From positions 5,567 through 69,566 of the forward strand of contig CACYYM010000015.1 in NCBI GenBank assembly GCA_902778625.1: 64,000 nt of DNA. The letters run 5' to 3'. The DNA is from an uncultured Bacteroidales bacterium. GTDB taxonomy: Bacteria; Bacteroidota; Bacteroidia; Bacteroidales; Bacteroidaceae. Shown piece by piece: positions 7,761 through 63,772 of the stretch (position 1 is the stretch's first letter; every line of letters starts with the position of its first letter). The notes beneath the pieces were generated by a model. That model did not search any database. It saw only the letters and a program-made list of their open reading frames with translations, and had not been told where the DNA came from. The translations under genes and the position numbers were made by a program.

Positions 7761-7878
7761 ATAACGTGTTAAGTCGGCAAACTTAACGTGTTAAAACGAC
7801 AAACTTAACGTGTTAAAACGACAAACTTAACGTGTTAAAATGACAAACTTAACGTGTTAAAACGACAAACTTAACGTA
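7761..7878. repeat. 22-bp tandem repeat, about 5.4 copies (ttaacgtgttaaaacgacaaac)
   Basis: Read directly. Copies start at 7761, 7783, 7805, 7827 and 7849, with a partial copy at 7871. The array ends 27 nt before the amylase ATG. Confidence 0.95.
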
Positions 7879-7904: not shown

Positions 7905-9908
7905 ATGAAAAAATTTGGACTTTTGCTATCAGCAATCATACTGCATTTAACCGTCTTTGCACAAGGCTGGCCGATGGATTATGACGGCGTGATGATGCAG
8001 GGATTCTATTGGGATTCCTATTCAGAAACGTCTTGGGCGAAGCTTGAAGCACAGGCAGACGAGATTGCTCCTTATTTCCAATTGATTTGGATTCCGCAGA
8101 GCGGATGGTGTAACAGCGATTACACTATGGGCTACATGCCTGTCTATTACTTCGACCAAAAGAGTGCTTTCGGTTCCGAATCACAGCTTCGAAGTATGAT
8201 AAAAACTTACAAGAAAAAGGGTACGGGCTTCATCGCCGATGTTGTTCTCAACCATCGAAAGAATATTGGCAAAGATGGCTCATGGGTTGACTTTCCCGAA
8301 GAGACATACAACGGTGTAACGTATCAGATGTATCCCTCCGATATCTGCAAGAACGACGACGGCGGAGCGACAGGCAATTGGGCATCGGCACACGGTATTT
8401 CGCTCTCGGAGAACAATGACACAGGCGATGATTGGTCAAGCTGTCGCGACCTCGATCATAACAGTCAAAACGTCCAAGAATACATCAAAGCCTATCTCGA
8501 TTTCCTACTTAACGACATAGGTTATGTCGGTTTCCGCTATGATATGGTGAAAGGCTTCTATGCAAGTTTCGTTGGCGAATATAATATGGCGGCAAGACCT
8601 GCTTTCAGCGTTGGCGAATACTTTGATGGAACAAGCAACATCAAACAGTGGATAGACTTCACGAAAGGTTATGTGGCAGAATATCCGACCAGCGGAGCCT
8701 TCGACTTCGGCTTCCGTTATCGCATGATTGATGCTGTCAACAATCAGAAATGGCGTTATCTTGGAGAGGGCGATCCACCACTTATTTCTGATAATTACTA
8801 TAAGCAGTATGCCATAACCTTCGTCGAGAATCATGATACCGAGAATCGAATCAATGGAGATGTGCAGAATCCAATCTACAGAGACACACTTGCTGCAAAC
8901 GCTTACATGCTTGCAATGCCTGGAACGCCTTGCGTCTTCTACAGACATTGGGCGGACTGCAAGTATCCGCTCAAGCAAATGATTCTTGCCAGACGACTTG
9001 CCGGCATCACGAACACTTCTGGTGCTGAAGAGAAATGGAGAGACGACAAATACTATGCAAAGGCAGTTTACGGCAAGAACGCCACTCTGATCTGTGTCGT
9101 TGGCAGCAATCCAGACGGGTATGGAGTGAGCACTTCTGACTATCGCAAAATACTTTCCGGCAAAGGATATCGCTATTATTTGAGTCGAAACGCCAACACA
9201 GTTTGGATGGATGTCCCAGATGGAACTTACGAAGGCTCAATTCAAGTCAAGTTCACTGCAGTTAGCAATTATACTGGCTTCAGGATTGTCTATACGACAG
9301 ACGGCTCTGATCCGACTTCCGAAAGCAACACTATTACAAGCGGAAGCACTTTGAGTATCGAATCCTCCTGTACGCTTAAGGCCGGCATATTGCATGGAGG
9401 CAAGGTTTATGGCATTCAGACTCGCAAGTACAACATCTTTGTGCCACACGACATCACGCTTTACGTTCACTCCGACGTCACTTGGTCCGCAATGTCCTTC
9501 TACGTCTGGGACAACCTCGACAACAAGCCCAACGGCAATTGGCCCGGCAAGCGAGTAAGGGATACTAAGGAGATAGGAGGCAAGACATGGAACTATCAGA
9601 CCTATCATCTCTCGTCGGCCGACCAATACCTCAACTTGATTGTTACAAACACAGCAGGCGGCAGACAAACCATTGACGTTCGTGGTATCCGCTCTGACCG
9701 CTTCTTCTGCATTACAGGAGACAAGGACGGGAGCAACTTCATCATTGAAGACCAGACGGATGATATGGCGACAGGAATTGAGGAACTTGACAACTTTACG
9801 CCCTCACCATTTAACAATTCCGCTTTCAACCTGCAAGGCATGCCTGTTCCTCAAGGCAAGAAGAAAGGCATCATTATAGAGAACGGACGAAAGACCCTGT
9901 ATAAATAA
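7905..9908 (+). CDS. GH13 alpha-amylase with C-terminal binding domains and T9SS sorting tail
   Basis: GH13 regions DVVLNH, GFRYDMVKG, VGEYFDG and FVENHD. C-terminus FNLQGMPV...KGIIIENGRKTLYK resembles a T9SS CTD. Confidence 0.85.
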   Translation: MKKFGLLLSAIILHLTVFAQGWPMDYDGVMMQGFYWDSYSETSWAKLEAQADEIAPYFQLIWIPQSGWCNSDYTMGYMPVYYFDQKSAFGSESQLRSMIKTYKKKGTGFIADVVLNHRKNIGKDGSWVDFPEETYNGVTYQMYPSDICKNDDGGATGNWASAHGISLSENNDTGDDWSSCRDLDHNSQNVQEYIKAYLDFLLNDIGYVGFRYDMVKGFYASFVGEYNMAARPAFSVGEYFDGTSNIKQWIDFTKGYVAEYPTSGAFDFGFRYRMIDAVNNQKWRYLGEGDPPLISDNYYKQYAITFVENHDTENRINGDVQNPIYRDTLAANAYMLAMPGTPCVFYRHWADCKYPLKQMILARRLAGITNTSGAEEKWRDDKYYAKAVYGKNATLICVVGSNPDGYGVSTSDYRKILSGKGYRYYLSRNANTVWMDVPDGTYEGSIQVKFTAVSNYTGFRIVYTTDGSDPTSESNTITSGSTLSIESSCTLKAGILHGGKVYGIQTRKYNIFVPHDITLYVHSDVTWSAMSFYVWDNLDNKPNGNWPGKRVRDTKEIGGKTWNYQTYHLSSADQYLNLIVTNTAGGRQTIDVRGIRSDRFFCITGDKDGSNFIIEDQTDDMATGIEELDNFTPSPFNNSAFNLQGMPVPQGKKKGIIIENGRKTLYK

Positions 9909-24191: not shown

Positions 24192-24262
24192 GACACAGCA
24201 CGTTGTTTTTGCAAACACAGCACGTCGATTTTGCAAACACAGCACGTTGTCTTTGCAAACGC
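24192..24262. repeat. three 22-bp units acacagcacgt(t/c)g(t/a)ttttgcaa
   Basis: Read directly. ACGT(T/C)G-core family. Confidence 0.8.
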
Positions 24263-24515: not shown

Positions 24516-24945
24516 ATCAGTGAACCGGCTTGTCGCTGCTCTGCTTGCGTTCTTTCAGGAGCAAAACAGAGGAGAGGAAAGTCCGGGCAACACAGGGCAT
24601 CTCGCTTCCTAACGGGAAGAGGCTCGCGAGGGTCTGTCTGTGCAGAAGAAAACAACCGCCCTTTGAAATGTTGAAACCTCAAACAGTTGAAACGTTAAAA
24701 GGGGTAAGGGTGAGAAGGTGAGGTAAGAGCTCACCAGGTCGGCAGTGATGTCGATGCTGTGCACACCGAGAGTTGAAAGTTCATGTAAACCCGCGCATTT
24801 GTCCCGAGCTTGGCGAAGGATAACGAGAGGGCGGCCCGTCCGAGCGGGAGGGTAGAACGATAGAGGACAGCGGCGACGCTGTCAGTAGATAAATGACAGG
24901 CATTCCTTAAACGGAACACAGAACCCGGCTTACAGGTTCACTGAT
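24516..24945 (+). ncRNA. rnpB: RNase P RNA, bacterial type A
   Basis: GAGGAAAGTCCGGGC, GGTAAGGGTGAGAAGGTGAGGTAAGAGCTCACC and ACAGAACCCGGCTTAC universal blocks. P1 pairing atcagtgaacc / ggttcactgat defines the ends. Confidence 0.9.
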
Positions 24946-24966
24946 TTTTCTTTATATAAAAAGAAC

Positions 24967-27455: not shown

Positions 27456-27550
27456 TTTCCACAGGCGAAAAATCAATCGCCGCACGCGGAAATTGCAATC
27501 GCCGCACGCGGCGTTTGAAATCGCTACACACGGAAATTTCAAATTCGGCG
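27456..27550. repeat. Composite CGCCGCACGCGG element, copy 2
   Basis: cgccgcacgcggaaattgcaat / cgccgcacgcggcgtttgaaat / cgctacacacggaaatttcaaa. Confidence 0.8.
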
Positions 27551-38229: not shown

Positions 38230-38320
38230 ACCGCAAGCGGAATTTCAAACGCCGCACGCGGGGATGGTCATCGCCGCACGCGGAAATTGCAATCGCCGCA
38301 CGCGGCGTTTGAAATCACCC
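38230..38320. repeat. Composite CGCCGCACGCGG element, copy 3
   Basis: accgcaagcggaatttcaaa / cgccgcacgcggggatggtcat / cgccgcacgcggaaattgcaat / cgccgcacgcggcgtttgaaat. Outer tttcaaacgccg and cggcgtttgaaa are inverted. Confidence 0.85.
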
Positions 38321-43349: not shown

Positions 43350-43455
43350 AAACACAACGTAGTTAAAATGCAAAAACAACGTGGTGAGTTGACAAACTCG
43401 ACGTGTTGAGTTGACAAACTCGACGTGTTAAGTTGACCGACTCACCCTGTTAAAT
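43350..43455. repeat. degenerate 22-bp-period array (gagttgacaaactcgacgtgtt)
   Basis: Two clear units plus degenerate flanking units, between glnS and the TPR gene. Confidence 0.75.
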
Positions 43456-46057: not shown

Positions 46058-46132
46058 GGTGCGGTAGTTCAGTTTGGTTAGAATACTAGCCTGTCACGCT
46101 AGGGGTCGCGAGTTCGAGCCTCGTCCGCACCG
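46058..46132 (+). tRNA. tRNA-Asp (GTC)
   Basis: Cloverleaf folded by hand: acceptor GGTGCGG/CCGCACC, anticodon loop CTGTCAC, T-arm GCGAG TTCGAGC CTCGT. CCA is not encoded. Confidence 0.9.
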
Positions 46133-54163: not shown

Positions 54164-54241
54164 CCGCAACTAACATTGCGCCTTCTTGCGCTCCAGTTGG
54201 TGCTCAGGCGCAGGCGGAAGGTGCTAGAGCATCCAAGAAAC
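54164..54241. repeat. 77-bp dispersed element, copy 1
   Basis: ccgcaacta.ca.t.gcgccttcttgcgctccagttggtgctcaggcgcaggcggaaggtgctagagcatc.aagaaac. About 95% identical to 58111-58187. Confidence 0.9.
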
Positions 54242-54390
54242 AGTAAACAGTAAACCGTAAACTGTAAACTTTAAACTTTTATCTTTTAACTTTCAACTCT
54301 AAACTTTAGAACTGACTCTAAACTCTAAACTGTAAACTCTAAACCGTAAACCGTAAACTCTAAACTCTTATCTTTTATCTCTTAACTCTC
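54238..54390. repeat. heptamer stutter array (gtaaac[t/c/a], ctaaact, ttatctt)
   Basis: Read directly. Fills the intergenic DNA downstream of the NYN gene. Confidence 0.9.
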
Positions 54391-55077: not shown

Positions 55078-55298
55078 TATTATATAAAATAAGCCGCCCC
55101 CTTTCGGAGGCGACGAGCCTTAGCCTTTTTCATCTAAGGGGGATAAATTCTTCTGCAAAGGTCGGACTTTTTTTTGTTTCCACCAAATCCGCCATTATGT
55201 TTTTAAACATTTTTATGAATTCGTGTAGATTCGTGCTATTGACTTTGCTTTTCCGCTGAAGCGCCAGCGACTTGCAGTTCCCTATGGCCGTCGACCTC

Positions 55299-55358
55299 AG
55301 TTCGTGTTCGTTAAACCGTAAACTGTAAACTGTAAACTGTAACCCGTAAACTTTATAT
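55299..55358. repeat. site A: ttcgtgttcgtt core + gtaaact array
   Basis: cagttcgtgttcgttaaaccgtaaactgtaaactgtaaactgtaacccgtaaacttta. Inverted copy at 61214-61292, direct copy of the core at 61569-61583. Confidence 0.85.
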
Positions 55359-56486
55359 TTTCTCAAAGAAATGCGACCACACGCTGTTGAACAGGAATGA
55401 CGGCATGGAGGTGTAGCTGAAGTCGCGGAAATTCTTGTTGTTCTTCATGATTTTGAAGAAGAGATTCACTCTTTTGCGGAACCATGAACGTTGGCCTGAT
55501 GCCTTCACTTCTTCAGGCAGAGAGAAGATCTCGTCATAGACTCTTCGGTGAGATGGCGCAAGCGATTCGTATGTCTTTTTGCCCTCAACGACATCAGCCA
55601 AAGCCTCTATCAAAGCCAGAACGCGGTCGAACCTGAATTCCTTGCATCTCGCCTCAAAAGCCGCCCTATCGAAATCCTGTTTCCTGAGAACAACCCAATC
55701 CACGATGTGCTTCAGCGACAACTTGTCTTGTTGCAGATCCCCCAAAGCATGCTCCACATAAAGCATCACGGTGAACATCAAAGGCGGGCAAGCCAATGTC
55801 GTTCCCTCGAAAAACCTCCCTTGAACTCCTTGCTCCGCACCTTGGGGGTGCGCCTTGGTGCTAAAGCATCCAAGAACATCTTGAACTCTTGAACTCTCAA
55901 GCAGTCCTCGCAAGTATCGCTCAACCTTCTGCAGGTTCTTGTTCCCACGATATGGCGTGATACATCTGTGGCACTCCACATAGACATCGTCCAGCCTGAA
56001 CTCCGCCTCTTTATAGACCTCAAACTCCAACTGAACACCCTTCTCTTCCAACAGCTTGCAAGCCCGCTCCCAGTCGTGTCCAATGAAGACATCCAAGTCG
56101 CAGCTGTAGCGATGGCTGGGCACAGGATAGTATTGAGCGATGGCCCGTCCCTTCAGGACAGTTGCGTGAATGCCAGCAGCCGACCACAACCGGTCCAACT
56201 TACGCGCCACAGCCCAAGTCCGTTCATACTGAGAGCATTGTTTGTCCGTATGGCCATACCATTGCATCAGCATCTCGAGATCAGGACGCTGATTCGCAGG
56301 CAGTTTCTCCAATGCCTCGAAGCACAATCCCAGCACCCCCTGACTAATTGCAAAATCCAACGCCTCCTGCCAATCCGTGCCTGCAGGAATCTCGATTGCC
56401 AGACCAGGATTCAGCGCCTTACGTATCAGAAGTGTAACAACCCAAACAGTAGCGTCATTCATAGTTGAAATGCTTTCGCAATCCAT
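55353..56486 (-). CDS. uncharacterised nucleotidyltransferase family (NTP_transf_5-like)
   Basis: Start placed at MDCESIST (56486; 56462 is also possible), after a TACTTTTG box at 56503-56510. RYSCDLDVFI DxD motif. 377 aa. Confidence 0.5.
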   Translation of the reverse strand: MDCESISTMNDATVWVVTLLIRKALNPGLAIEIPAGTDWQEALDFAISQGVLGLCFEALEKLPANQRPDLEMLMQWYGHTDKQCSQYERTWAVARKLDRLWSAAGIHATVLKGRAIAQYYPVPSHRYSCDLDVFIGHDWERACKLLEEKGVQLEFEVYKEAEFRLDDVYVECHRCITPYRGNKNLQKVERYLRGLLESSRVQDVLGCFSTKAHPQGAEQGVQGRFFEGTTLACPPLMFTVMLYVEHALGDLQQDKLSLKHIVDWVVLRKQDFDRAAFEARCKEFRFDRVLALIEALADVVEGKKTYESLAPSHRRVYDEIFSLPEEVKASGQRSWFRKRVNLFFKIMKNNKNFRDFSYTSMPSFLFNSVWSHFFEKI

Positions 56487-56544
56487 CAATCGTACTTTTA
56501 CTGCGCAAAAGTACAAAAAAACAAGCACAGTACAAAATAAATGA

Positions 56545-56577
56545 AAATAAAAAAGAGTCCGAACCTAATCAGACTCT
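56545..56577 (-). terminator. terminator module (agagtc..gactct + T-run), copy 1
   Basis: Minus strand: gagtctgattaggttcggactc TTTTTTAT. The same ~55-bp module occurs at 58049-58105. Confidence 0.5.
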
Positions 56578-56585
56578 CAAATGCA

Positions 56586-56652
56586 ACCTGTAAACGTTAA
56601 CCTGTAACCCGTAACCTTTAACCTTTAACCCGTAAACAGTAAACAGTAAACT
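56586..56652. repeat. heptamer stutter array (cctgtaa/cccgtaa/acagtaa)
   Basis: Read directly. Abuts the DegT stop codon. Confidence 0.85.
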
Positions 56653-57978
56653 TCAAACAATCGCTTCCCTAATGCACTCCACAATATACTTGACATCTTC
56701 ATCCGTCACATACGGTCCTGCAGGCAAGCACATGCCAATCTTGAAGATGTCCTCCTCTACCCCGTTGGTATAGACCGGTGCATCTTTATATACCGGCTGC
56801 TTGTGCATAGGCTTCCATACAGGGCGGCACTCTACCTTCTTGTTCAACATAAACACGCGCATAGCCTCTACATTGTCGTTTGGCTGACAGTCTGTGGTGG
56901 CTGAATCCACCTGATGAATCACACCGGCAGCACCACCCACAGCCGTCTTTATCACCTCCTTGTAAGCGTTCTCCTGCCCTTTCACCTTCACAGAAGGATC
57001 GAGCGTCATCGTGCACAACCAGTAATTACTATCATACTCACCACTCTCAACTTTCGAACTGTCACTAAACTCTAAACTCTCAACTCTACACTTTGGTTGA
57101 CTGTTCACAGTCACGCCTTTCACATCAGCCAAAAGCTCTTCATACAGCCCTTGCACATGCTTATGGTGTGCAATATGGTCGTTCAAGACGGTCATTTGTC
57201 CGCGACCAATACCGGCACACACATTACTCATGCGATAGTTATAACCGATGGCAGAATGCTGATAGTATGGATAAGCATCACGAGCCTGAGTGGCATACCA
57301 CATAATCTCGTTGGCATCTTCTGCCGAACGACAAATCAATGCACCGCCACCACTGGTAGTAATCATCTTGTTGCCATTGAACGAGAGCACGCCATACTTG
57401 CCAAATGTGCCCAGCACCTGACCATTGAAGCGTGAGCCCATACCCTCAGCAGCATCCTCCACTACAGGAATACCATACTTGTCTGCGATAGCCATGATCT
57501 TGTCTATCTGATAAGGCATACCGTAGAGCGCCACAGGCACAATCGCCTTGGGATATTTGCCAGTCTTCTCTTTGCGGTCTATGATGGCCTTCTCCAGCAA
57601 ATCGGGGTCCATATTCCAAGTCTCTTTTTCCGAGCCAATGAATACAGGCTTGGCTCCACAATACGTGATTGGATGCGAAGAAGCACAGAACGTAAAGCTC
57701 TGCACAATCACTTCATCACCAGGACCTACCCCACACGCCAAAAGTGCCAAGTGCACAGCCGCAGTACCAGCGGAAAGACAGACCACCTTCCGATCAAGGG
57801 GTTCACTACCGTCCGTTTTACTATTGGCAAAGTCAGCAAGGTCTTTCTCGAAAGCATTCACATTCGGCCCCATCGGCACCACCCAATTCGTGTCGAAAGC
57901 CTCCTTCACGTATTTCTGTTCCCAACCCTCCTCGCTCATGTGAGCCAAGCAGAGGTAAATTGTTTTGCGTCCTTCCAT
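56653..57978 (-). CDS. DegT/DnrJ/EryC1/StrS-family PLP aminotransferase (sugar aminotransferase)
   Basis: IYLCLAHMSEEGWEQKYVKEAFDTNWVVPMGPNV N-terminus, SFNGNKMITTSGGG (PLP Lys context) and SNYWL. Confidence 0.85.
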   Translation of the reverse strand: MEGRKTIYLCLAHMSEEGWEQKYVKEAFDTNWVVPMGPNVNAFEKDLADFANSKTDGSEPLDRKVVCLSAGTAAVHLALLACGVGPGDEVIVQSFTFCASSHPITYCGAKPVFIGSEKETWNMDPDLLEKAIIDRKEKTGKYPKAIVPVALYGMPYQIDKIMAIADKYGIPVVEDAAEGMGSRFNGQVLGTFGKYGVLSFNGNKMITTSGGGALICRSAEDANEIMWYATQARDAYPYYQHSAIGYNYRMSNVCAGIGRGQMTVLNDHIAHHKHVQGLYEELLADVKGVTVNSQPKCRVESLEFSDSSKVESGEYDSNYWLCTMTLDPSVKVKGQENAYKEVIKTAVGGAAGVIHQVDSATTDCQPNDNVEAMRVFMLNKKVECRPVWKPMHKQPVYKDAPVYTNGVEEDIFKIGMCLPAGPYVTDEDVKYIVECIREAIV

Positions 57979-58110: not shown

Positions 58111-58187
58111 CCGCAACTACAATCGCGCCTTCTTGCGCTCCAGTTGGTGCTCAGGCGCAGGCGGAAGGTGCTAGAGCATCAAAGAAA
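58111..58187. repeat. 77-bp dispersed element, copy 2
   Basis: See 54164-54241. Confidence 0.9.
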
Positions 58188-58280
58188 CGGTAAACCGTAA
58201 ACTGTAAACTGTAAACTGTAAACTTTACATAAACTCTAAACTTTCAACTTTTATCTTTTAACTTTTATCTTTTAACTTAA
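58188..58280. repeat. heptamer stutter array
   Basis: ggtaaaccgtaaactgtaaactgtaaactgtaaactttacataaactctaaactttcaacttttatcttttaactttt. Its last part encodes the C-terminus ...LIKLKDKS of the 58258 gene. Confidence 0.9.
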
Positions 58281-60657
58281 TTAAATTCCGGTACACTCCT
58301 TTTTCCACCCTTTCCACCTTACCTTTCTTTGCATAACGCGAGAGAAGGGTTTTAGCTTCGCCACATTGTCCTTGGCGAAGACGTTCTTCCTTGAACTGTT
58401 GGATGGTGAAGACTTCGGGCATGAGGCTCAGGAGCGGTTCTGCCGTAATACGGGCATCGCGGGCTTGGAGCATCTGCTCGGACTCCTTCATGTCCTGAGC
58501 GACACGGCTGGCAAAGATGTGACAGATGTTGTAGTAGGCAAAGTCGCCGAGCCAACGAACGAGCTCGAGAACTTCTTTCTGCTCCTCTTCATAGAGGGCC
58601 AGGAAGGGGATGGCGGCTCTTTGCATGAACTGCCCCACTCGGTGGCTGAGGTCGGCCTCTGCTTCGGTCAGTTCGCCGTCGTTGTAGCGTTCCTCGAGTT
58701 CGTCATACCACTGCTGAATCATCTTCTGCGTCTTGGGCATCTGGAGCGTGAGCGTGTCATTTCCCAGCGCAAGGTCTTTCTGCCAGAGGTTTACGAGCAG
58801 GCTGTCGCGTTCTGTCTCTTCGTCGGAGGAGAGCGGGGTGAAGACGGGTGGACGGAAGGTGCGCTTGACATCAGGGAGCATCATGGGCAGGAACCTTTGC
58901 ATCATACCGCTCTCTGTATCGGCGAAGAGTCGGGTGAGAACGCTCCTTGGAGTGCCTGTCAAGAGGATGGCGGCACAGAGCCGGCATTGGGTGTTGCAGG
59001 AGGCTTCGCTCATGTAGAACTGGCGGTGTGTGTCGAGGTCCCATGCCTTGCGGAGCAGCACGGAGATGTTCGAGAACTGGGCCTTCGAGGCGTTGGCCAA
59101 CTCATCGCTCTCTGTGTAATTGCAGAGGAGCATCCCGTTTTCTCCGAGGTTGGTCTGGACTTCCAAGAGACTGGTTTTGCTCATGGTTTCCATGATGCGG
59201 AAGCGGGGATGATACTTGGCCGGTTTGTCCTTGGCATTGCTCATCCGGTCGCGCATTTCCTGATTCTCACGGACTTTGCGCCATTCCTGGTCGTCCCAAC
59301 TCTGCAGGGTGTGGCGGCACATCAGTTCCACGAGCATGGTCACCCAGCTCTTGCCCTTGCCACTGCCTGCAATGATGGCGGCGTAGAGGTTGGCGGCGAT
59401 GGTTCGGCCGTCTATGTAGGTCGTGCGGAAATGGCTGGCGATGGTGCCGAGGACCACGCAAGCCGTGACTACGAGCATGGGATGGTACTCCTTCGGAAAG
59501 GGTTTGATGAGGAGCTGAACGAGGCGCGGCAACTTCTTCGGCATCTTTGGCGGATTCCAGCCTTGAACCAGGCACTCCAAGTCCTTGTCGGCATCTTCTG
59601 CGTCAGAACTATGGACTATGGACTCTGAACTACGAACTGTCTCCTGAGCCCGTTCGACTGCGTCCTGCATCCTCTTGGGCATGCCTTTCAGGAACTCGAA
59701 CTTCTGGGCGCTCTCCACGGTATTCTTCACGTTTTCGTTTCTCTCCTGTACGATCTCCTGCACGAAAGGCGTCTGGCGGAGAATCTGTTCGATGAGCGCA
59801 GGGTCGTTGTCGGTAATGTATCGGAGCTGGTCGGCCAGGATCAAAGACGTGTGGTGCCTATCGCCAGGCTGCACCTTCTCGCCACCCAGCCAAGCATCGA
59901 CGATCTGGGAATAAGGGATGCCGTGATAGAGAAGTTGAGAGTGGAGAGTGGAGAGTTGAGAGTCAGTAGTGGGTTGAGAGTCTGTTGAAAGTTGAGAGTT
60001 TAGAGTGTAGAGTTTAGAGTCAGCTTGACTATCGTCCTCTTTAACTTCCTTTTTAACTTCCAGACCGTTCACGGTCTTTACTCCCTCTTTTACTTCCTCG
60101 ACTTTGAAGATTTTATCTTCAAGAAAGATTAAATCTTCAACAGTCGTTGTATAGAACACTCTCGTTATATCCTTCGCTCCTTTGTCGTAATCCACGCCGA
60201 GGAGGTCGCTGGCCCAACGCAGATTGTCCTCCTGGCTCAGTTCTGGACGGCGGCGGAAGACAAGGTGATACCCTTTCGTGGCCGACCTTTCCAGCATCAG
60301 CAATCCAAGTTCCTCCTTCTTCGATAGCACCAGTTCAGGAACCATCCTCAGCCATTCCTCTTTTCTGGCAGCTATCTGCTCTTCCCCTTCATTGGGAAGC
60401 GGGGAAGGGGTCCAGTCGATGTCCATGCCCACGGAGGTACTCATTCGGGTAGAGCCCTTCAGCGAACCATCGTCGTTGGGCAGACAGGAGTAGTTCATCT
60501 GCAGGAGCAGCGACTTCTTGTCCACCTCGCCCCTCCTGACGGCAGCGACCAGGTTGACCTGCGAACGTGTGCCACGCAGTTTGAGGTACTCCTCGCGGTC
60601 AGGAACGGGGCGCATCATCTTCGCCCCGTCCTTGTAGTAGATTGAATAACAACTCAT
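58258..60657 (-). CDS. VirE-N / DUF3987-type primase-helicase-like protein (P-loop)
   Basis: 799 aa. N-terminal domain resembles the BT4734/VirE_N family. AIIAGSGKGKSWV Walker A in the C-terminal half. Contains low-complexity inserts encoded by stutter repeats. Confidence 0.6.
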   Translation of the reverse strand: MSCYSIYYKDGAKMMRPVPDREEYLKLRGTRSQVNLVAAVRRGEVDKKSLLLQMNYSCLPNDDGSLKGSTRMSTSVGMDIDWTPSPLPNEGEEQIAARKEEWLRMVPELVLSKKEELGLLMLERSATKGYHLVFRRRPELSQEDNLRWASDLLGVDYDKGAKDITRVFYTTTVEDLIFLEDKIFKVEEVKEGVKTVNGLEVKKEVKEDDSQADSKLYTLNSQLSTDSQPTTDSQLSTLHSQLLYHGIPYSQIVDAWLGGEKVQPGDRHHTSLILADQLRYITDNDPALIEQILRQTPFVQEIVQERNENVKNTVESAQKFEFLKGMPKRMQDAVERAQETVRSSESIVHSSDAEDADKDLECLVQGWNPPKMPKKLPRLVQLLIKPFPKEYHPMLVVTACVVLGTIASHFRTTYIDGRTIAANLYAAIIAGSGKGKSWVTMLVELMCRHTLQSWDDQEWRKVRENQEMRDRMSNAKDKPAKYHPRFRIMETMSKTSLLEVQTNLGENGMLLCNYTESDELANASKAQFSNISVLLRKAWDLDTHRQFYMSEASCNTQCRLCAAILLTGTPRSVLTRLFADTESGMMQRFLPMMLPDVKRTFRPPVFTPLSSDEETERDSLLVNLWQKDLALGNDTLTLQMPKTQKMIQQWYDELEERYNDGELTEAEADLSHRVGQFMQRAAIPFLALYEEEQKEVLELVRWLGDFAYYNICHIFASRVAQDMKESEQMLQARDARITAEPLLSLMPEVFTIQQFKEERLRQGQCGEAKTLLSRYAKKGKVERVEKGVYRNLIKLKDKS

Positions 60658-60688: not shown

Positions 60689-60828
60689 AGCTTACTGCTT
60701 ACCGCTTAAAAGCTTAGAAGTGGATCTTAAACGCTAACCGCTAAACGCTTTCCGCGCTAAACCGCGCGCCTTGCTGCTAAAGCATGCAAGAACCTCTGTA
60801 AACTGTAAACAGTAAACAGTAAACTTTA
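60689..60828. repeat. stutter arrays (gcttac/cgctaa, then gtaaac) around a tgctaaagcatgcaagaa motif
   Basis: Read directly. Confidence 0.85.
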
Positions 60829-60830
60829 CC

Positions 60831-61208
60831 TCACGCACTTCGTGCCAGTATATGTCGTTTCCCTGGCATACGCGCATCGGCGAGCTCTTCGATGTGATAG
60901 AGGGCCGAGCCGAAGTCGTAGTACAGCTCGTCGGTGAGCGCCTTGGTATCCTCGAAGTCCTCGGGGATGGCGATGCGGAAGGTGCCACGCAGCTTGCCCT
61001 CCTTGTCGATGCGGAGCGTGAGGTGATGGCCGTTCCAGACGATCGGGTTCTTGATGCTGGACGGACTCTTCGCTTCTTCCACGAAGCTTGCCACACCCGC
61101 CTTGTCATTCACGTGCAGGTGTCCGCGCAGGTTCTTTACTATATCGCAGAACACGTTGCTCTGCTGTGTCACTCTCAGTTTCATGTTTTTAAATTCTACA
61201 GTAATCAT
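60831..61208 (-). CDS. hypothetical 125-aa protein
   Basis: ORF in an operon-like position upstream of the primase-like gene. No family recognised. The start may be MKLRV at 61184. Confidence 0.4.
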   Translation of the reverse strand: MITVEFKNMKLRVTQQSNVFCDIVKNLRGHLHVNDKAGVASFVEEAKSPSSIKNPIVWNGHHLTLRIDKEGKLRGTFRIAIPEDFEDTKALTDELYYDFGSALYHIEELADARMPGKRHILARSA

Positions 61209-61213
61209 TTTTT

Positions 61214-61292
61214 GTAAAGTTTAAAGGTTAAAGTTTACAGTTTACGGGTTACAGTTTAAAGTTTACAGTTTACAGTTTAACGAACACGAATT
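61214..61292. repeat. site B: inverted copy of site A (gtttac array + aacgaacacgaa)
   Basis: The reverse complement reads caattcgtgttcgttaaactgtaaactgtaaactttaaactgtaacccgtaaactgtaaacttta. Three mismatches to site A over the first 48 nt. Confidence 0.85.
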
Positions 61293-61582
61293 GCTCGAAT
61301 AAACACGAATTTATAATGGTACTTTTATGTAGATGATGAGTTGCTATTGTTTGGAAGCATCTTGAAAGCATAAAGCAGCGAGAGCAAAGGCAAACTCGTT
61401 TGGATTTTGCCGAGTCGCGAAGTGGTTCGAGGAACTCAAAACAAGCTTTCAGAGTGCTTCCCAAAAATATCAACCTTTATTCAAGAATAAAGCAATCTAT
61501 AGGATTGTCATCTATATAAAAAGATTCGTTAGATTAGAGAGATTCGTGTTCAAAGAAAAGAAATTGCCAGTTCGTGTTCGTT
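61279..61582. promoter_or_regulatory. candidate invertible promoter (inverton)
   Basis: aacgaacacgaa (61279-61290) and ttcgtgttcgtt (61571-61582) are perfect 12-bp inverted repeats (15/18 over 18 bp) flanking 280 bp. That segment holds a minus-strand TATTTTTG box at 61462-61469 pointing at the 61208 gene. Confidence 0.5.
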
Positions 61583-61740
61583 TACTTGATTTTTCTTGTT
61601 TTTTCTTTTGGAAGCTTTGAGTCCGAAGGACAGGCCGGTTATCGGAAGGAAGATGGCGGAAGTTCACTTACAGCCAGATTTCTGACGATAGCAGGCAGAC
61701 ACGAAGTGTCGAAGCTTTCAAAAGTGTTTTTTAGGTTTTT

Positions 61741-61800
61741 GTTCTTCAACCGTTCTCGTCAACTGTTCTCGTTAACCGTTCTCGTCAACTGTTAGCGTTA
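61741..61800. repeat. three copies of cgttctcgt(c/t)aac(t/c)
   Basis: Read directly. Overlaps the stop of the 61785 gene. Confidence 0.8.
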
Positions 61801-62066
61801 ATGTTGATTATTCGTACTTCGTTGGCAACGGCTCCGCTGGGCAGGAGTCGCGTGTGGAAAGCGAGCACAGCCTGGACGGTGCTGCCCTGTTCGATGACGG
61901 AGCCTGCAAAGCATTCTGCGTCGATGGTTGCGCTGATGTAGTTCTCGCCTGCCTCGTCGTTCCAACTGAGGAGGATGTCGCGGAAGGCCCACTTCTTGCC
62001 AGTGGTCTTCGAGGTGCCGGTCTTCAGTTCGCCGACACGCTTCACTTGAAGATTTTCAAATTTCAT
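61785..62066 (-). CDS. DUF3127-like small OB-fold-type protein
   Basis: 93 aa. GELKTGTSKTTGKKWAFRDILL pattern resembles DUF3127. Confidence 0.45.
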   Translation of the reverse strand: MKFENLQVKRVGELKTGTSKTTGKKWAFRDILLSWNDEAGENYISATIDAECFAGSVIEQGSTVQAVLAFHTRLLPSGAVANEVRIININANS

Positions 62067-62392
62067 TACTTGCGTGTGTTAAATTAATAATGTTAGTTTG
62101 TCGTTTGAGCTCGTTCGACTGATTTCTGTTGCAAGTCTGCGGTTTAGCGAGCACCATGAGAACTTGTTCTCTAATGGTCGAGCGTGAGCAGGCTCGCGGT
62201 GAAGTCTTGAGCGTCAGCTCTCGCAGAGAAACGGGCCCTGTTTCTATGCTAAAGAGGCTTTGACTCTTAATTCCGTTGCAAATTTACGGCAGTTTCTGAG
62301 ACTTGACCTCTCCAGAGACAAAGAACACGATGCAGTACAAATAAATACAAAAAAATACAAATGCTACACAAATTTTGTACAAATTCTGGCAC

Positions 62393-62537: not shown

Positions 62538-62654
62538 CTACTCTAAAAGACCCAATTCGCCCATGCAACTTGTAGTTGTGATGGCTGTCAGAAATGCTGT
62601 GAGCGCGGCTACTACTACCTTCACCAGCGTCTCTATGATTTTACTCTTGTTCAT
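62538..62654 (-). CDS. smalltalk-family small lipoprotein (38 aa)
   Basis: My translation is MNKSKIIETLVKVVVAALTAFLTAITTTSCMGELGLLE. ATGA overlap with the upstream stop. The pattern A.LTA..T...TSCM matches the Bacteroidales smalltalk family as I remember it. Confidence 0.6.
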   Translation of the reverse strand: MNKSKIIETLVKVVVAALTAFLTAITTTSCMGELGLLE

Positions 62655-63085
62655 AGCTTTTGATTTTTTAATTTTGAATTTTGAATTTCCTTGAAGAGGT
62701 TGTATCCCTTCTGGATTGTCTCTTTCGATATAAGGGCACCGCACTCCACGAATGCCATAGCATGAACCAAGGCAGGGAGCTGGTCTTCTGCGAGCCTTTC
62801 TTTTCCTCCGAACCCTGTGAGCCTGCATACGGTTTCGATGTATTTTCTCGTATCGTTTTCGCTCGGTGGCGCCCATCGATTTATTATGTCTTCTACACAT
62901 ACGGCTTTGTATTTTCGTCTGTAGGTTTCGAGGATGCAGAAAGCGGCTCGAATGCCCCACGCAAGACTTTCAAACTGAACAAACGATTTGTCACCTTGAA
63001 AACTGCTTTGCCCTTTCCATCGAGTACCTGCAACCCTCCGAATGTTCAAAGGGTTGCAGTTTCTCATGCCGCGAGTCATCTTCAT
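62651..63085 (-). CDS. putative phage-type cell-wall hydrolase (RN.NP.NIR motif family)
   Basis: MRNCNPLNIRR..GTRWKGQ N-terminus, as in proteins annotated P5-like muralytic. Occupies the slot usually held by an amidase in HU-amidase-smalltalk clusters. Confidence 0.4.
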   Translation of the reverse strand: MKMTRGMRNCNPLNIRRVAGTRWKGQSSFQGDKSFVQFESLAWGIRAAFCILETYRRKYKAVCVEDIINRWAPPSENDTRKYIETVCRLTGFGGKERLAEDQLPALVHAMAFVECGALISKETIQKGYNLFKEIQNSKLKNQKL

Positions 63086-63140
63086 AGCGGTTAGCGGTTA
63101 GAGTTTAGCGGTTAGCGATAATGTTTAAGAGTTTAAGTTC
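63086..63140. repeat. stutter array (gcggtta / gagttta)
   Basis: agcggttagcggttagagtttagcggttagcgataatgtttaagagtttaagttc. Confidence 0.85.
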
Positions 63141-63217: not shown

Positions 63218-63691
63218 CTATTCCAAACCCTGAATAGTATCCGTGTTCTTGATGACTTCGATGGCGTCGTCCTGCATCTTGCGGGTAGGAACGAGCTGGA
63301 ACTGAGCCTCGTTGCGGAGGTTCCTGAAATCCTTGCCGGGATTCCAGCAGACGTTCACGGACTTGATGTTGCCTGCACCGAATTCCTCGGTGGTGTCTGC
63401 GCCTTCGCAGCCGAGTTCCACACGGAAGCTGCCGAGTTCACCGAGGCTGACGATGTTGCCAGCAAGAAGCTGCTCGCGGAGACAACGGATCATGTCGGTG
63501 ATGACACCGCTGATGGTACCCTTGGAGAAGGGCGTGTTGTGGTCGGCCATGTGTTGTACGAACTGGTCGTAGGTGAGTTTGGCGTTAGCTTGTGCGGAAC
63601 CATAAGCCTTGGTGCCGCCGGTCTCTGCGCTGATGTCGGCCTTCTTTGTGCCGGGCTTCGCGCTCATAATGCAAATGGAGTAGTTAATCAT
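63218..63691 (-). CDS. Bacteroidales HU-like DNA-binding protein (~150 aa)
   Basis: GTISGVITDMIRCLREQLLAGNIVSLGELGSFRVEL core. The start may be MSAKPG at 63667. Confidence 0.65.
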   Translation of the reverse strand: MINYSICIMSAKPGTKKADISAETGGTKAYGSAQANAKLTYDQFVQHMADHNTPFSKGTISGVITDMIRCLREQLLAGNIVSLGELGSFRVELGCEGADTTEEFGAGNIKSVNVCWNPGKDFRNLRNEAQFQLVPTRKMQDDAIEVIKNTDTIQGLE

Positions 63692-63704: not shown

Positions 63705-63772
63705 AGTTGACGAGTTAACGAGTTGACGAGTTGACGAGCCTTTACTTGTTTACTTGTCTACTTGTTTACTCT
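63705..63772. repeat. octamer stutters (gttgacga)3-4 then (tttacttg)4
   Basis: Read directly. Confidence 0.9.

Follow-up and report, generated by a model that had tools for sequence, protein, structure and literature searches.

Is the segment at positions 61279-61582 of a 64,000-nucleotide stretch of DNA from an uncultured Bacteroidales bacterium (the whole stretch is called the window below) a promoter that can be turned around? Phase-variable promoters are the main route of surface diversification in gut Bacteroidales and, to our knowledge, almost everything known about such promoters comes from cultured human-gut Bacteroides. A preliminary description of the window had drawn attention to perfect 12-bp inverted repeats enclosing 280 bp in this segment, and had proposed a phase-variable promoter in the orientation that drives the neighbouring minus-strand genes. 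We compared the locus with its counterparts in other assemblies. In nature, this one locus occurs with the segment in either orientation, with crossovers inside the repeats and with two partner pairs used, and we regard it as likely that the segment is an invertible promoter (inverton) that is turned on and off by site-specific inversion. Invertible promoters at polysaccharide-type loci of Bacteroidales are well known (PMC12632263, PMC8748976, PMC4747536).

Inverted repeats bound the segment

Direct reading and repeat finding both recovered the perfect 12-bp inverted repeat, with AACGAACACGAA at 61279-61290, TTCGTGTTCGTT at 61571-61582 and 280 bp between them. When the arms are extended, 14 of 15 positions match over 15 bp (93%) and 14 of 18 match over 18 bp, the latter being a recount of a figure previously given as 15 of 18. 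With up to one mismatch allowed, the 12-mer occurs four times in the window versus an expectation of 0.40, and none of 100 shuffles reached four occurrences; the 12-mer is a non-chance feature. The half-site-like copies that had been described as flanking the repeats are also present, as shorter copies within both ends of the segment (ATTCGTGTTC at 61542-61551, ATTCGTTAG at 61524-61532, AACACGAAT at both 61283-61291 and 61302-61310, and CTCGAAT at 61294-61300). Both 12-bp arms form the outer ends of short arrays of ~9-bp repeats (ATTCGTnnn ... ATTCGTGTTCGT; ATTCGnnnn). Four of the copies are designated sites A to D, and crossovers between pairs of them are written as A x D and B x D:

61279-61291, plus strand: site D, the gene-proximal outer inverted repeat (AACGAACACGAAT), which is a crossover site in both flipped classes
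61302-61310, plus strand: site C, a gene-proximal inner repeat copy (AACACGAAT), at which no crossovers were seen
61542-61551, plus strand: site B, an inner repeat copy (ATTCGTGTTC), which is the alternative crossover partner and the junction of contigs L031 and L053
61571-61582, plus strand: site A, the gene-distal outer inverted repeat (TTCGTGTTCGTT), which is a crossover site in A x D flipped contigs (junctions of L030 and L054)
61291-61570, no strand: the invertible interior of 280 bp, which the window holds in the ON orientation, with the predicted promoter facing the 125-amino-acid (aa) gene

The interior occurs in both orientations between the same genes

Orthologous loci were obtained by exact-protein look-ups of the two genes that flank the segment, the 93-aa gene upstream and the 125-aa gene downstream, and of close variants of these proteins. 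This yielded ~40 independent contigs from ENA, JGI and Logan, with an origin in the ruminant gut or rumen inferred from the record names. By its record name, the window is part of a scaffold of a metagenome assembly (STEW19-1_SAMEA5383917) that appears to be from rumen. Contigs, referred to by L numbers, were compared with the window in gene-sense orientation, where q denotes positions in the reverse complement of 60800-62100. The first four orthologous contigs retrieved all had the orientation of the window, and flipped copies appeared with further protein variants. Classification by junction signature gave ~13 loci in the ON orientation and ~11 in the OFF orientation, with the flipped interior at 97-99% identity:

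ON: the window, L002, L012, L024, L004, L025, L038, L039, L043, L047, L049, L055 and L059
OFF: L026/L044, L030, L031, L045, L046, L053, L054, L056, L057 (classed from its junction signature alone), L058 and L060

ON and OFF contigs come from different samples. The OFF loci of L044, L045 and L053 are internal to contigs of 51, 87 and 84 kb, respectively, and that of L054 is at the end of a 66.7-kb contig.

In L030, the alignment with the window runs forward over q1-530, continues on the opposite strand from q822 to q734 and from q663 to q564 (97-99% identity), and is forward again from q836 onward; L054 has the same arrangement. The junctions of ON contigs read ...caagtaAACGAACACGAActggcaatttc... 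and ...ttcgagcaaTTCGTGTTCGTTaaactg..., and those of L030 and L054 read ...caagtaAACGAACACGAAttgctcgaataaac... and ...gaaattgccaaTTCGTTTTCGTTaaaccg.... On one side, the latter two contigs run from the flank through AACGAACACGAA into ttgctcgaataaacacgaat..., and on the other side ...gaaattgccaaTTCGTTTTCGTT is joined to the heptamers, exactly as if the interior of the window had been reverse-complemented between unchanged flanks. Both flipped junctions are present in L030 and L054, with the breakpoints inside the 12-bp repeats. L058 and L060 have the flipped gene-proximal junction, L026/L044, L045 and L046 have the interior flipped at 98.9% identity in contigs of up to 87 kb, and in L056 a fragment of the interior is flipped and the proximal join differs. 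L031 and L053 run forward through the inner repeat copy to q559-577 and have an inverted interior after it; they retain 'ctggcaatttcttttctttg', and their orientation changes at the inner AACACGAAT. L030, L054, L058 and L060 are A x D products, and L031 and L053 are B x D products, with at least three structurally distinct flipped forms overall.

Flipping the window in silico between sites A and D gave a match to L054 at 367 of 378 positions, versus 312 of 344, with a far lower score, for the unflipped window. The equivalent flip between sites B and D matched L031 at 191 of 192 positions, and the ON controls L012, L024, L043 and L049 fit the unflipped window. Because the k-mers used by the assemblers (up to 141) far exceed the 12-bp repeat, misorientation during assembly is implausible, and we infer that the flipped contigs represent real molecules. 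The presence of flipped copies between the same flanking genes upholds the earlier proposal of phase variation, in which the promoter activity itself is predicted.

We also compared orientation with divergence of the adjacent 125-aa gene. There were 0 nucleotide differences in this gene among L055 (ON), L053 (OFF, B x D) and L060 (OFF, A x D), and L047 and L049 (both ON) differ by 3 nt from L044-L046 (OFF). Orientation is uncoupled from sequence divergence. Since 125-aa genes are identical across ON and OFF contigs, orientation turns over faster than point mutation, and the scatter of orientations over a near-clonal background, together with the existence of at least three flipped forms, argues for recurrent, fast inversion. 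These data are consistent with reversible, frequent switching within one population. Some of the variants could be paralogous loci of the same genome; this is made less likely by the upstream genes that they share and by the 216-kb scaffold, which has a single copy.

A candidate promoter in the interior faces the 125-aa gene

The invertible interior contains a candidate promoter element and two sets of symmetrical sequences:

61462-61469, minus strand: candidate Bacteroidetes-type -7 box TATTTTTG, with a predicted transcription start at ~61455
61475-61492, no strand: central perfect palindrome CTTTATTC-AA-GAATAAAG, directly upstream of the -7 box
61323-61336, plus strand: left arm of a nested inverted repeat (TTTTATGTAGATGA)
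61508-61521, plus strand: right arm of the nested inverted repeat (TCATCTATATAAAA), 93% complementary to the left arm

The -7 box, which the preliminary description had located correctly, is the sole TAnnTTTG on either strand within 61150-62150; it is inside the invertible segment and faces the gene. One TAnnTTTG per 2 kb of strand is close to the background of the window (50 per 128 kb) and is not significant alone. Related cassettes of other types, described below, retain a T-rich ...TTTG at the aligned -7 position. We predict that TATTTTTG marks the active promoter. A sigma-70 scan gave nothing useful, and a terminator scan found no terminators. The T-run of the -7 box differs between strains (T4, T5 and T6; TATTTTTG, TATTTTTTG and TATTTTGG in the window, L030, L053, L054, L058 and L043), and this variation may tune promoter strength.

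The central palindrome may be a protein-binding site. Imperfect inverted-repeat symmetry extends along the arms of the cassette over 60-80 bp, and the entire cassette folds into one long hairpin (RNA fold z = -6.4). Because the distal arm is upstream of the predicted promoter, this symmetry is more likely to be a DNA-level feature (protein binding, recombination) than an RNA stem. No Rfam family matched the segment at the gathering score, and three sub-threshold matches in 60700-62300 at E<=10 were taken as chance.

We propose that the segment is most likely turned by crossover between its outermost sites, A and D, through a site-specific recombinase whose gene lies elsewhere in the genome; in the alternative reaction, the inner site B would take the place of A as the partner of D. 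When the switch is ON, which is its state in the window, transcription from the promoter would proceed through a heptamer leader into the 125-aa gene and then into a DUF3987 primase-like gene, and might extend to the sugar-modification genes behind the DUF3987 gene. In the OFF state, the promoter would point back at the 93-aa gene and read into its 3' end, leaving the downstream genes without this promoter.

Related cassettes are found at neighbouring and distant loci

The preliminary description had suggested a search for other genomic copies of the repeat in an inverton-like configuration. A second palindromic cassette of the same plan, bounded by the repeat, is found just beyond the window (L005 9340-9665, ~30-350 nt past the right end of the window; L002 40-360). 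It lies upstream of a 63-aa DUF4248-like gene, in the space that separates the operon of this gene from the divergently oriented HU-HIG gene, and folds into a hairpin with z = -5.4. The gene order near this second cassette is strain-variable: the window strain has inverted 63-, 43- and 164-aa genes plus the HU-HIG and 144-aa genes, an arrangement not shared by L002, L024 and L026, and this suggests larger rearrangements among cassette copies.

The nested repeat co-varies on both arms across cassette types, of which three were seen: type 1 has TATAGATGA and TCATCTACA, type 2 has TYCAGATGAC and GTCATCTGAR, and type 3 has CTTACTGATGA and TCATCAGTAAG. At the position of the central palindrome, the type-3 cassette of L027 has CTTTTATC-GT-GATAAAAG, such that the symmetry is retained and the sequence is changed from CTTTATTC..GAATAAAG. 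The 125-aa gene is preceded by a type-2 cassette in L029 and L034-L037, by a type-3 cassette in L027, and by no cassette in L040 and L051; the boundary of the cassette swap is site A. A type-2 cassette is also found upstream of the 63-aa gene in L002, and L006 has a type-1-like cassette facing the HU-HIG gene. In the distant relatives L007-L010, the locus has no cassette. A search of genome contigs with the 125-aa protein returned only four 42-46% paralogues, in one metagenome-assembled genome; there, the two genes that flank the segment adjoin, with no cassette between them.

A third perfect copy of the repeat is found within the window:

55301-55352, plus strand: third perfect copy of TTCGTGTTCGTT, which like site D has a heptamer array behind it; its orientation is opposite to that of site D, and no promoter interior adjoins it

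This copy (55301-55312) is 6 kb from site D, on the downstream side of NTP_transf_5. It could conceivably allow a large inversion that takes in the 125-aa/DUF3987/DegT block, and none was seen. There is only one match to the 12-mer, with one mismatch, in the first 55 kb of the window; copies cluster at 55-64 kb and just beyond.

We also searched JGI metagenomes with the repeat-pair pattern. The species of the window was not recovered by this search, and the terminal motif proved to be very dense in polysaccharide loci of other Bacteroidales, where 12.6 kb contain 28 copies. Wza, Wzz, a VapE-type primase, HU-HIG and an amidase are encoded at these loci. The interiors there are 160-340 nt long and the motif on either side of them points outward in every case, such that further copies of the repeat bound similar segments there too. 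The overlapping contigs L020 (JAEEGK010016585.1) and L022 (JAEEGI010002620.1), from different assemblies, are collinear, with no flip. Both contain kilobase-long non-coding stretches of 45-75-nt tandem repeats that each end in ATTCGTGTTCGT, with opposed blocks around short interiors. Conservation of the terminal motif across taxa is as expected of a protein recognition site.

Based on the cassette types, we tentatively suggest that there is a family of palindromic, interchangeable promoter cassettes, of three types, and that one recombinase, recognising these unusual direct-repeat sites without a dyad, both flips them and exchanges them between operons, as a promoter-level shufflon; we see this as possible, with little confidence. 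The members of the family have in common the ATTCGnnnn arrays ending outward in ATTCGTGTTCGT, the nested co-varying repeats and the central palindrome. The operons served would be the 125-aa/DUF3987 pair, the DUF4248-like 63-aa operon and the HU-HIG gene, and these operons belong to the conserved, function-unassigned gene set that accompanies Bacteroidales polysaccharide loci.

Evidence against a dedicated switch and alternative explanations

Several observations weigh against a dedicated promoter switch. Among the retrieved contigs, we found no single sample with both orientations. In line with the preliminary description, which saw no recombinase gene in the window, no recombinase domain was detected in ~37 of its open reading frames in a non-exhaustive comparison with Pfam and NCBIfam. 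Likewise, no recombinase or integrase domain is on record for the L005 genes that occupy the next 10 kb past the window (precomputed Pfam annotation; eight genes scanned). The repeats at the inversion sites are direct TTCGTK repeats and are without the internal dyad symmetry that is usual in recombinase core sites; the family of the recombinase cannot be guessed from such sites. There is no canonical -33 TTTG at 19-21 nt upstream of TATTTTTG, and in the paralogous cassettes the TA of TAnnTTTG is missing. Taken as a whole, the cassette forms a long imperfect palindrome, which is beyond what an inverton requires. There is no terminator-like site between the co-oriented 93-aa gene and the switch, so the OFF state is possibly leaky through read-through. 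Lastly, several flipped contigs have extra differences, including a 70-nt deletion in the interior, a 41-bp insert, and replacement of the proximal repeat in L026/L045. On balance, we consider that a dedicated recombinase probably performs the inversion.

The best-surviving alternative is that the inversions are real and do not involve a dedicated switch. Occasional RecA-dependent recombination or replication template-switching between the 60-80-bp imperfect arms would turn the segment, and the orientations would be strain polymorphisms fixed by drift. The extended imperfect arms, with the whole element forming one hairpin, are consistent with this possibility, as is the co-variation of the nested repeats between types, as if the arms homogenise each other. 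It would also fit with the finding of neither a recombinase nearby nor a sample with both states, and with the variable crossover position, with both A x D and B x D products found. However, the identity shared at the crossovers spans only 9-12 bp, a very short length for homologous recombination, and the ~50:50 distribution of orientations, uncoupled from divergence down to zero differences in the adjacent gene, implies many independent events. Moreover, similar segments in Bacteroidales contigs that are unrelated have retained ATTCGTGTTCGT at their outward ends, as a protein recognition site would be. We therefore regard general recombination as an unlikely source of the two orientations.

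Alternatively, the cassette could be a non-autonomous element with an outward promoter, resembling a miniature inverted-repeat transposable element (MITE) or a Correia element, that was independently inserted or exchanged in either orientation. The cassette is palindromic and has terminal inverted repeats, the locus lacks it in L007-L010 and in L040 and L051, different types (type 2 in L029 and L034-L037; type 3 in L027) occupy the same site, and the type-2 cassette recurs upstream of the 63-aa gene in L002. By contrast, the B x D contigs keep part of the element in place with the rest inverted, an outcome that re-insertion of a whole element cannot yield. In addition, no target-site duplication is visible at the cassette ends, copies are clustered at this type of locus rather than dispersed, and repeated insertion at the identical nucleotide, in both orientations and between identical flanks, would be unparsimonious. 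This makes an insertion history very improbable.

A static palindromic element or structured RNA, with the arrays serving as operator sites or as the stem of a structured leader RNA in a fixed orientation, was considered after the first four contigs, which all share the window orientation, and would account for the strong folds (z = -6.4 and -5.4) and for the conservation of the central palindrome and nested repeats as symmetry, but it was dropped once flipped contigs were found and is now scarcely credible, being contradicted by eleven independent assemblies with a flipped interior between the same genes and by a distal arm that is upstream of the predicted promoter and thus outside that transcript.

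Tandem-repeat leaders and small inserts

The leader between the switch and the 125-aa gene is a tandem array:

61215-61280, minus strand: (TAAACYG)n heptamer array, forming the leader from site D to the ATG of the 125-aa gene

The length of this leader is 49, 56, 63, 70, 77 or 84 nt depending on the strain, and is always a multiple of 7. Arrays of 7-8-nt tandem repeats are found directly upstream of nearly every start codon in this cluster (54238-54389, 55312-55352, 56585-56651, 58185-58278, 60796-60825, 61215-61280, 63085-63117 and 63705-63770). These arrays could provide a second, slippage-based layer of variation, or could be unstructured leaders.

A 41-bp GC-rich hairpin insert, TTTGATGCTCTAGCACAAAGGCGCGATTCTAGTCGCGGAGC, splits a site copy at exactly ATTC^GTGTTC in several contigs (L002 2881-2921; L024 ~2256-2296; L030 ~2167-2207; L056 ~44-84; L005 ~9368-9410). 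It is always gene-proximal whichever way the cassette faces, being in site D in ON contigs and in the inverted site B in OFF contigs; in L056, it is directly before GTGTTCGTT. It also interrupts, in reverse orientation, a heptamer array of the second cassette. The insert could be a very small mobile element with a specific target, or could serve to lock the switch. Its placement is explained only in part by single inversions from one known site to another: only the step from L024 to L056/L031 fits a B x D flip, and the L030-type arrangement does not. A second small insert, of 27 bp (GACTTTCCCTACGGCCGTCGACCTCAG), is found in or next to ATTCG units in three contexts (window 55270-55300; L047 ~65-93; L006 ~815-841).

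Elsewhere in the window, intergenic tandem arrays with a 22-nt period are found at 1303-1404, 27474-27542 and 38231-38316, and also at 7762-7877, 24193-24260 and 43379-43453. One family with this period consists of a palindromic unit, CAATCGCCGCACGCGGCGATTG, that recurs at three places.

Genes surrounding the switch

Every gene around the switch is on the minus strand:

63218-63691, minus strand: HU-HIG DNA-binding protein
62651-63085, minus strand: 144-aa protein, lysozyme/endolysin-like (PHROG match)
61785-62066, minus strand: 93-aa gene upstream of the switch, no Pfam match
60831-61208, minus strand: 125-aa gene, the first downstream of the switch, no Pfam, NCBIfam or PHROG match
58258-60657, minus strand: 799-aa DUF3987 primase/helicase-like protein, the second gene downstream (DUF3987, E=2.4e-11; weak PHROG match to DNA primase)
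beyond the DUF3987 gene, minus strand: DegT aminotransferase and NTP_transf_5 protein (together 55353-57978), and NYN protein

The 125-aa protein belongs to a rare family of 13 clusters. The 93-aa gene had previously been labelled DUF3127. We could not support this label: the protein has no Pfam match even at E<=10, and only one distant homologue at the same genomic position touches DUF3127, with E=0.005, which falls short of the cut-off and leaves the label unconfirmed. The downstream genes had been called a primase-like operon, and here the DUF3987 match stands and the PHROG match to primase is weak. Among the neighbouring genes, only the 144-aa protein has a clear PHROG affiliation. The space separating the 93-aa gene from site A contains a 160-nt non-coding module (61604-61763), which is 90% conserved in L013, a species with a 125-aa protein of only 74% identity, and is cleanly missing from L012, L026, L029, L033 and L036; it may be a further modular element or a small RNA. 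The window also contains a bacterial class A RNase P RNA and one tRNA gene (24517-24948 and 46058-46132), which are ordinary housekeeping features.

Significance

The switch described here was documented purely by comparative metagenomics, in an uncultured and apparently ruminant-gut lineage. Its distinguishing features are the new type of recombination site, the alternative crossover partners, the new predicted targets, 125-aa and DUF3987, in place of UpxY/UpxZ, and the unusual architecture of the cassette. The locus provides a handle on an unexplained conserved gene set beside Bacteroidales polysaccharide loci, comprising an HU-like protein, a cell-wall hydrolase, a small helix-turn-helix protein and a primase-like protein; as read from the arrangement of promoter and genes, at least part of this set may be under ON/OFF control. 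Our analysis also indicates that a predicted inverton can be validated without reads, by comparing assemblies fetched via the flanking proteins.

Comparison with known systems

Like the Correia elements of Neisseria and promoter-bearing MITEs, the element is a short palindromic cassette with terminal inverted repeats that exists in several versions and can form a long hairpin. Unlike these elements, its copies in the window and the contigs compared are few and tied to one kind of neighbourhood, no target duplication is visible, and flips occur in place and can be partial. Shufflons, such as that of R64 (Rci) and the SusC/D shufflon of B. fragilis (Tsr0667), share with this locus the presence of several site copies in both orientations within a few kb, alternative partners, and structural variation between strains; here, however, it is a promoter cassette that moves rather than coding segments. 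Differences in gene order (L005 versus L002/L026) hint at larger rearrangements between cassette copies.

The capsular invertible promoters of B. fragilis and B. thetaiotaomicron (serine recombinase Mpi; invertons of the PhaseFinder type) are similar in being segments of a few hundred bp with short inverted repeats, upstream of an operon in a polysaccharide-locus neighbourhood. They contain a TAnnTTTG-type promoter, and the interior here contains a candidate -7 box of this type. In both cases, both orientations are natural and the recombinase need not adjoin the switch. The sites themselves differ from Mpi-type sites in that they are built from direct TTCGTK units, form arrays of the 9-bp unit ATTCGnnnn and have no core with dyad symmetry. 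The preliminary description had seen a likeness to an Mpi core that it gave as ARACGTWCGT, a consensus string that our literature search did not find; the best matches of this string are at 6-8 of 10 positions, off the repeat core, and the likeness is not supported. The first genes downstream also differ: capsular operons are led by UpxY/UpxZ, whereas the first genes here encode a 125-aa protein without a family match and a DUF3987 protein, not a NusG-like UpxY. The host, too, is uncultured and known from assemblies only.

A further parallel is with IVp-I and IVp-II of B. fragilis, which are turned by the tyrosine recombinase Tsr19 (BF2766). Tsr19 is encoded beside IVp-I, whereas the genes neighbouring the switch described here encode no integrase or recombinase domain. 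As at IVp-I and IVp-II, there are more than two repeat copies, with alternative products, which here are A x D and B x D. IVp-I is itself a multi-repeat invertible promoter with alternative products, in which the number of repeats between promoter and gene modulates expression (PMC4747536).

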